A stretch of DNA of 64,000 bases from Escherichia coli (GTDB lineage Bacteria > Pseudomonadota > Gammaproteobacteria > Enterobacterales > Enterobacteriaceae): NCBI RefSeq assembly GCF_001677475.2, contig NZ_CP015229.1. The stretch is one strand, 5' to 3'. A program made the translations under genes and the position numbers. Below are positions 19,902 to 20,538 of the stretch, piece after piece. The notes below the pieces were generated by a model. That model was not told the DNA's origin and ran no database searches. It saw only the letters and a list, made by a program, of their open reading frames with translations. Position 1 is the first letter of the stretch, and every line of letters starts with the position of its first letter.

Positions 19902-20538
19902 AAATTCCTCTTCTGACGTTCTCCAATCCCTTGTAATACTGTCAATCCAGATATTTTCTACTGCTCAATATTCAATCGGCTTCAGGAATACCTGATCAAA
20001 GGTTTTGTGATGGACGATGAGCGACTGAAGAATCCGCCTGTCGGTTCTTCTGTCCTCGAACGCATCCGCGATATTCGCGCCAGCATGCGCCGTGTTTATT
20101 TGCAGGTGATTTGCCCCCCTGCTGACTCTCAGCCAACTGTATCGCCATTAAGCTGAAGATGTTGTTTTACTCGCCCCAGAACACCCTTTTTTATACGACT
20201 ATTCTATTTCTTTAACCGCTGGCGAAAAAAACTGACCTATAAACTTCACCAATAATCAGACTGCCATCAAGATTAATTTGTTCATTTAATATATCAAATC
20301 AACTTGTTTTATTTTTACTATCAAAAATAGCTCATTGCCTTAATATAATTAATATATAAATTCGGTAATTAATTCTTCACATGCTTTTGCTAATAATCTC
20401 AATTGCTGGCCCTGTAATATTGCGCTAGCATTGCTTTCTGGTTGTATCAGCGATACTCAAAAATTCTTAATACAATACTCATTCGACTGGTACTTATTTG
20501 TAACTCAGTTATATTTTGTCGCCCGGTGATTCAGAAGA

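Follow-up and report, generated by a model that had tools for sequence, protein, structure and literature searches.

The 48-codon open reading frame at 20010-20156 (+), placed between the tRNA-Sec gene selC (19807-19901) and setC (20539-21723), is in our reading a non-functional relic: it is the pseudogene already annotated as yicT in Escherichia coli K-12, and it represents what is left, after decay, of the interior of a 345-residue RhuM-family gene that formerly stood next to selC. We put the probability of this reading at about 93%. Positions refer throughout to the window, by which we mean the whole 64,000-nucleotide stretch of E. coli DNA that was analysed. Of the two possibilities in the original prediction, a small protein gene or what remains of an older gene beside the tRNA, it is the second that the evidence bears out; the frame derives from residues 121-185 of an rhuM gene, and 845 other genomes have that gene intact in the same place after selC. 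The suggestion of a small protein gene is not supported, because the homology runs through the ATG and continues 5' of it and because the frame is broken by indels and frameshifts in related strains, tolerated lesions of exactly the kind that had been named at the outset as telling against a gene. Where an open frame stands out by its GC content from the AT-rich spacer next to a tRNA integration hotspot, a gene relic is the simplest reading, as this case shows. The relic itself is known, and what is added here is minor: its 5' boundary at 19980, the leader at 19902-19979 and the GCTT junction between them (Table 1), and the frequencies of the relic in the population.

The evidence for descent comes from comparison with the intact RhuM protein of E. 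coli A26, residues 121-185 of which align by tblastn to 19980-20135 with 44 of 65 positions identical (E = 3e-22), across one gap of eight codons and another of three; the corresponding DNA is 77% identical over 154 nt by blastn. The first 25 aligned residues match intact A26 RhuM exactly (LQEYLIKGFVMDDERLKNPPVGSSV), ten of them falling 5' of ATG 20010, and the string GFVMDDERL is likewise common to the relic and the intact protein. Since the match begins at 19980, 30 nt before the ATG, the apparent 'start' methionine of the ORF is the internal Met131 of RhuM. The ORF peptide also matches the Pfam profile PF13310 (Virulence_RhuM; E = 3.4e-6), at profile positions 61-98 of 252 only, and the score of the relic (27.0 bits) lies under the gathering cut-off of 33.7, with too little of the domain covered for membership; a scan of the peptide against NCBIfam gave no match. 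Measured against the RhuM family, as represented by WP_001280586.1 of A26 and ST131, the common descent is clear (aa 121-185, 68% identity including gaps) and the tRNA-Sec neighbour is the same, whereas only some 52 of 345 residues and 38 of 252 profile positions are left, and the native start, the N-terminal 120 aa and the C-terminal 160 aa have gone. Both position and similarity, then, identify the relic with yicT and with descent from a PF13310 gene, while a segment with neither a start codon of its own nor a full-length frame (~345 aa) is not an intact RhuM; it is a derivative of the family and not a working member.

This relic has been annotated in several guises. In MG1655 (NC_000913.3) the pseudogene yicT (b4653; 3836425-3836556) lies 109 nt after selC and maps collinearly to 20010-20141 of the window; it occupies the same locus and strand, shares the same ATG, and is 97.3% identical to the window over 219 bp. 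The window differs in lacking the TAA that K-12 carries at 19998-20000 and an Arg-to-His replacement, and it is slightly less decayed in consequence. In many E. coli genomes PGAP/RefSeq records a partial 'RhuM family protein' rhuM pseudogene at about 19980-20141, with N- and C-terminus missing and often with an internal stop or frameshift. The K-12 feature begins at the ATG, whereas both the homology and the PGAP feature begin 30 nt earlier, and on the alignments the interval 19980-20135 is the true extent of the pseudogene. Elsewhere the ORF appears in public databases under the names 'cytoplasmic protein' and 'hypothetical protein', deposited by gene callers for more than 1,000 contigs, though it is a RhuM fragment; these deposits reflect ORF calling and are no evidence of function, so that the importance of the identification is largely one of annotation hygiene. 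A literature search on yicT and b4653 returned nothing but unrelated papers, in which the strings were econometric notation or reagent catalogue numbers.

Table 1. Coordinates of the relic, its lesions and the adjoining landmarks in the window.
Feature	Position	Strand	Basis or remark
selC, tRNA-Sec, anticodon UCA	19807..19901	+	ARAGORN; Rfam RF01852, 83.8 bits; RefSeq tRNA-Sec in all compared strains
selC 3' end, duplicated as attR-like far junction of selC islands in other strains	19878..19901	+	Starts of matches; relic lies just outside
Relic of old rhuM 5' leader	19902..19979 (78 bp)	+	Alignment to E69
Deletion junction with GCTT microhomology	19979..19982	+	Window compared with E69 leader (..TCGGCTT/AACCG..) and A26 gene (..ACGCTT/CAGGAA..)
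RhuM-homologous segment, aa 121-185 of 345-aa protein	19980..20135	+	tblastn, blastn, PGAP
Lys127 codon AAA, intact in window; TAA in K-12-type allele (PGAP 'internal stop')	19998..20000	+	Alignments with K-12, NBRC 3301, H3, C41, 504237
Reported 48-codon ORF, equal to K-12 yicT (b4653)	20010..20156	+	MG1655 annotation mapping; Met is RhuM internal Met131
Site of 24-bp in-frame deletion, loss of VPDYFDEM (aa 146-153)	20054..20055	+	DNA and protein alignment with A26 rhuM
Poly-C tract, 6 C in window, 5/6/7 C across strains; frame of last third of ORF shifts	20114..20119	+	Nine-allele alignment
AT-rich non-coding spacer 5' of setC	20157..20538	+	GC 0.22-0.38; marks 3' truncation of relic

The steps by which the gene decayed can be read from comparison with strains that retain more of it. 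Window 19880-19982 aligns to E. coli E69 with 85.6% identity (E = 1.7e-27), and in E69 the aligned stretch runs on for 40 nt into an rhuM ATG and 20 codons, which shows that window 19902-19979 is old rhuM leader and not unrelated spacer. The window follows the E69 leader as far as ...TCGGCTT and continues with CAGGAATACCTG, which in the intact gene comes after ACGCTT at codons 120-121; this three-way comparison points to a deletion of ~400 bp between two GCTT motifs, one in the leader at about -40 and one at codons 120-121. With it went the start codon and its ribosome-binding site, as well as the 120 codons of the N-terminus. Relative to intact A26 rhuM, the retained segment also lacks 24 bp, at a position ambiguous by a few bases, and a net 9 bp around the poly-C tract 20114-20119. 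Past ~20135, toward setC, there was no RhuM match by tblastn or blastn. The C6 tract is, in its own right, a slippage hotspot.

We propose a model in which selC was formerly followed at once by a complete gene of the rhuM family (PF13310), and in which the ~400-bp deletion between the leader GCTT (about -40) and the GCTT at codons 120-121 fused the leader to codon 121. Two more in-frame deletions, of 24 bp and 9 bp, together with a 3' truncation after codon ~185, reduced what remained to ~156 bp of former coding sequence. The patch has kept the GC content of its coding past, and the open frame in the window strain simply happens to include Met131. On this model the relic would be drifting neutrally today, and new selC-targeting islands would land between selC and the relic. 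The comparisons reported here show the homology and its extent, the junction, the spread of the relic in the population and the decay of the frame. We infer, beyond this, that the ancestor of E. coli possessed one full-length copy brought in by an element targeting selC, and that no function is left in the relic.

The distribution of the relic among E. coli genomes agrees with this history in showing several states of a single locus. Of 5,426 complete genomes, 3,630 (67%) carry the 219-bp relic with a coverage of at least 80%, and 845 carry an intact rhuM, likewise at 80% query coverage or more, ST131 strains included; roughly 900 have neither the relic nor the intact gene. At most six records carry two matches, so that relic and intact gene essentially exclude one another. 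The allele nearest to that of the window is the one in E. coli 042 (99.5%). Species-representative genomes searched with a 26-nt pattern common to the relic and the intact gene yielded 11 loci, all of them full-length rhuM, and no relic outside E. coli, an absence from other species that carries little weight as evidence given that the search required an exact match.

Within E. coli the frame is not conserved in the manner expected of a small protein. Damage among nine aligned alleles includes the C tract of five, six or seven residues, a 1-bp deletion, and the TAA of the K-12 type; the 1-bp deletion, at codon 16-17 in strain Z0117EC0062, leaves a 32-aa product. The amino-acid changes (R to H, I to M, R to C and R to L) sit in the part that is most conserved in RhuM. 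In EC102 (locus L012, 1565-2612) an IS5-like element of the ISKpn26 family has inserted into the relic, of which the first ~65 bp are left next to selC. In an evenly spaced sample of 32 full-length matches, nine depart from 219 bp by a net length that breaks the frame, and 19 show K-12-type identity. Mean pairwise divergence of the relic, estimated from 10 alleles, is 0.027-0.033 with three indel columns, whereas the leader stands at 0.045, the AT spacer at 0.023 and the first 200 nt of setC, which are free of indels, at 0.013; in this small sample the relic diverges like its non-coding flanks and 2.5 times as much as setC, and the mark of purifying selection is lacking. Codons 1-35 contain four nonsynonymous and two synonymous changes across nine alleles, counts too small for a formal dN/dS, and this 4:2 ratio is close to the neutral expectation as far as such small numbers can indicate.

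The ORF itself is as it was first described, in that the frame opens at ATG 20010, ends with a TGA at 20154-20156 and encodes the peptide given. The program-made list of ORFs places the start at GTG 20007, one codon before the ATG, and no stop interrupts the frame back to 19938, making 73 open codons in the window allele; an AAGG lies 7 nt 5' of the ATG and is a possible weak Shine-Dalgarno sequence. The description of a GC-rich patch in an AT-rich spacer is also accurate, GC content being 0.54-0.56 compared with 0.22-0.38 downstream and 0.38 just upstream. The accompanying claim of E. coli-like codon usage is not: scored against the 31 long ORFs in the window, the ORF has a codon log-odds of 0.004 per codon where those genes average 0.28, and the +1 frame scores higher (0.093) than the ORF's own. 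In 2,000 shuffles of the 637-bp selC-setC spacer, an equal or longer ORF arose in 69% when any start codon was allowed and in 44% with ATG only, and the length of the ORF alone is within chance expectation. The shuffling and log-odds tests rule out length and codon usage as marks of coding, and the non-random signal of the ORF is its homology to RhuM. On the opposite strand a 50-aa ORF (19996-20148, -) overlaps the 48-codon ORF almost exactly, and is most simply explained as a by-product of a GC-rich former coding patch.

The reading that competes most directly with a relic is a true small-protein gene, namely a 48-aa 'YicT' that was exapted out of the interior of RhuM, is translated from ATG 20010 and is kept by selection; we consider this highly improbable. 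The ORF resembles E. coli small proteins validated by ribosome profiling in length (50 aa or less), in its intergenic location and in falling below standard ORF thresholds; its frame is open, with the AAGG 7 nt before the ATG, and the first ~35 codons are open in eight of nine sampled alleles. It is unlike those proteins in that its frame is not conserved, that the published table of PMC9825163 contains no in-vivo Ribo-RET initiation signal for it, and that descent from a larger gene explains its sequence. Ribosomes do bind near the start in vitro, since INRI-seq recorded an 'alternative' initiation peak for yicT, but this was weak (11.4 CPM on a synthetic T7 transcript; PMC9825163 Table S3) and was assigned to an out-of-frame TTG at -5 (PMC9825163 Table S3), while in-vivo Ribo-RET at the site is given as 0/FALSE, not identified, in the same published table, where low transcript abundance could hide a signal (PMC9825163 Table S3). 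The zero value argues against translation from the ATG in vivo, not conclusively; the smORFer and SEC-seq supplements contained nothing on yicT. Retention of the relic in 67% of complete genomes might be taken for selection, but high retention is expected of any neutral sequence between two conserved genes, and the relic is absent from the 845 genomes with an intact gene and from some 900 others. Where it is present, the reading frame of the C-terminal third depends on whether the tract has 5, 6 or 7 C, loss of 1 bp leaves a product of 32 aa in one strain, and an insertion sequence disrupts the relic in EC102; its divergence is as great as in the non-coding DNA on either side and 2.5 times as great as in setC, its nonsynonymous changes outnumber the synonymous by four to two, and its codon log-odds is about zero. 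What counts against the relic reading is that all three lesions in the retained segment are in frame in the window allele, leaving the 73 codons open; the possible Shine-Dalgarno sequence, the read-through RNA that may come from selC and the ribosome binding in vitro stand on the same side, and low-level translation of the peptide could conceivably occur, the N-terminal ~35 codons being open in most sampled alleles.

A purpose for the patch other than coding, whether as a selC 3' trailer or terminator, in regulation of setC or as an integrase arm site at selC, seems to us more improbable again. Its location would suit such a role, since islands integrate at the selC 3' end, which is 78 bp away, and no other selC terminator is visible. 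However, a consensus scan of 19600-20600 found no sigma-70-like promoter and no intrinsic terminator, not even for selC, nor was there an inverted repeat in this interval, and an Rfam search of the same interval at a permissive E-value returned only tRNA-Sec. The patch evolves as fast as its flanks and tolerates both indels and an IS insertion, and B2-type strains have the intact gene in its place. With respect to expression the consensus scan is evidence neither for nor against, and because no terminator was found between selC and the ORF, read-through RNA from selC is possible. The last alternative, that this is a chance ORF in intergenic DNA without coding ancestry, can draw on the frequency with which such lengths arise in shuffled spacers (44-69%) and on codon usage that is not gene-like, and yet its likelihood is practically nil: the tblastn match to intact RhuM at the same locus (E = 3e-22), the PF13310 match (E = 3.4e-6) and the 25 consecutive identical residues of LQEYLIKGFVMDDERLKNPPVGSSV already refute it.

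The parent protein of the relic, intact RhuM, matches the PADLOC family PDC-S05, a candidate single-gene phage-defence family, from end to end (E = 2.8e-173), and the relic therefore descends from a type of gene suspected in phage defence. PDC-S05 is itself a candidate and the relic would be unable to supply any such activity; the match is a lead on the parent gene and not on the relic. The association of rhuM with selC is seen in Salmonella too: S. Typhimurium 14028 has an rhuM on SPI-3, whose insertion site is tRNA-selC (PMC3680342). In Morganella psychrotolerans an rhuM (locus L022, 2-1105; 81% aa identity) is located by blastn ~170 bp from a perfect 25-nt selC 3' end, which indicates that the arrangement of rhuM next to selC recurs outside Escherichia. 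ARAGORN reported no tRNA in the loci retrieved, and the Morganella locus spans only those 25 nt of selC. RhuM-family genes beside tRNA hotspots may represent defence cargo.

With regard to the locus itself, selC is both the landmark that adjoins the relic and a target for island integration. In island-bearing strains the match to the window begins at 19878-19881, that is, at the duplicated selC 3' end, so the islands of those strains sit between selC and the relic. The window contains a single copy of the selC 3' end, with up to three mismatches allowed, and lacks the direct repeat that would delimit an island; in the selC-setC interval there is no ORF or homology besides rhuM, and no integrase gene or its remains. 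Following selC in the window are the old leader, the rhuM relic of aa 121-185, the AT spacer and setC. E. coli A26 is arranged differently (locus L002, 6108-8530), with selC followed by an intact rhuM, a degenerate selC-3' repeat, a second rhuM fragment, a 165-aa gene and yicL. Its intact gene begins 52 bp beyond selC (6255-7292 of L002) and encodes WP_001280586.1, a 'virulence RhuM family protein' of 345 aa that covers PF13310 profile positions 1-250 (E = 4.5e-118). The repeat, at ~7404-7433 of L002, has TTCC deleted, and the second, decayed fragment at 7518-7709 of L002 corresponds to aa 170-245 (E = 2e-11); setC is absent and the 165-aa hypothetical gene, which has no Pfam match, stands in its place. 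The window relic and this second A26 relic overlap by ~16 codons and have no significant DNA match by blastn. E69 (locus L015, reverse complement of 200-2085) has an intact rhuM between two partial selC-3' copies, and downstream of these a window-type leader with a second rhuM that gives way to unrelated sequence after its first 20 codons.

The pieces of older rhuM in these three lineages probably reflect one ancestral full-length copy at selC that decayed independently in each; the intact gene of the B2 type would have reached this attachment site later. The deletion junction and the three relic states together illustrate, cleanly and on a small scale, how genes decay and turn over at the selC hotspot. 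It is also conceivable, though we doubt it, that the selC attachment site has repeatedly received islets consisting of rhuM only, each pushing the previous copy outward to decay. Repeated arrival of this kind would explain why the relics do not overlap (aa 121-185 in the window, aa 170-245 in A26, aa 1-20 in E69), and in both A26 and E69 the older relic lies past the degenerate selC-3' repeat. A bolder variant of the same proposal would have the 48-aa peptide still being made and interfering with RhuM-type proteins.

Two minor observations concern the surroundings of the relic. In E. coli 042 (locus L005) and at two further loci (L007 and L008), an island ending in a gene for a primase-helicase zinc-binding domain stands between selC and the relic, whereas the window has no selC island. 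Finally, an 18-nt direct repeat, with 16 of 18 positions identical, flanks selC and the relic at 19724-19741 (GGCGGAAAAAACTGATCT) and 20221-20238 (GGCGAAAAAAACTGACCT), its copies being 497 bp apart, and this may be a matter of chance in A-rich sequence.
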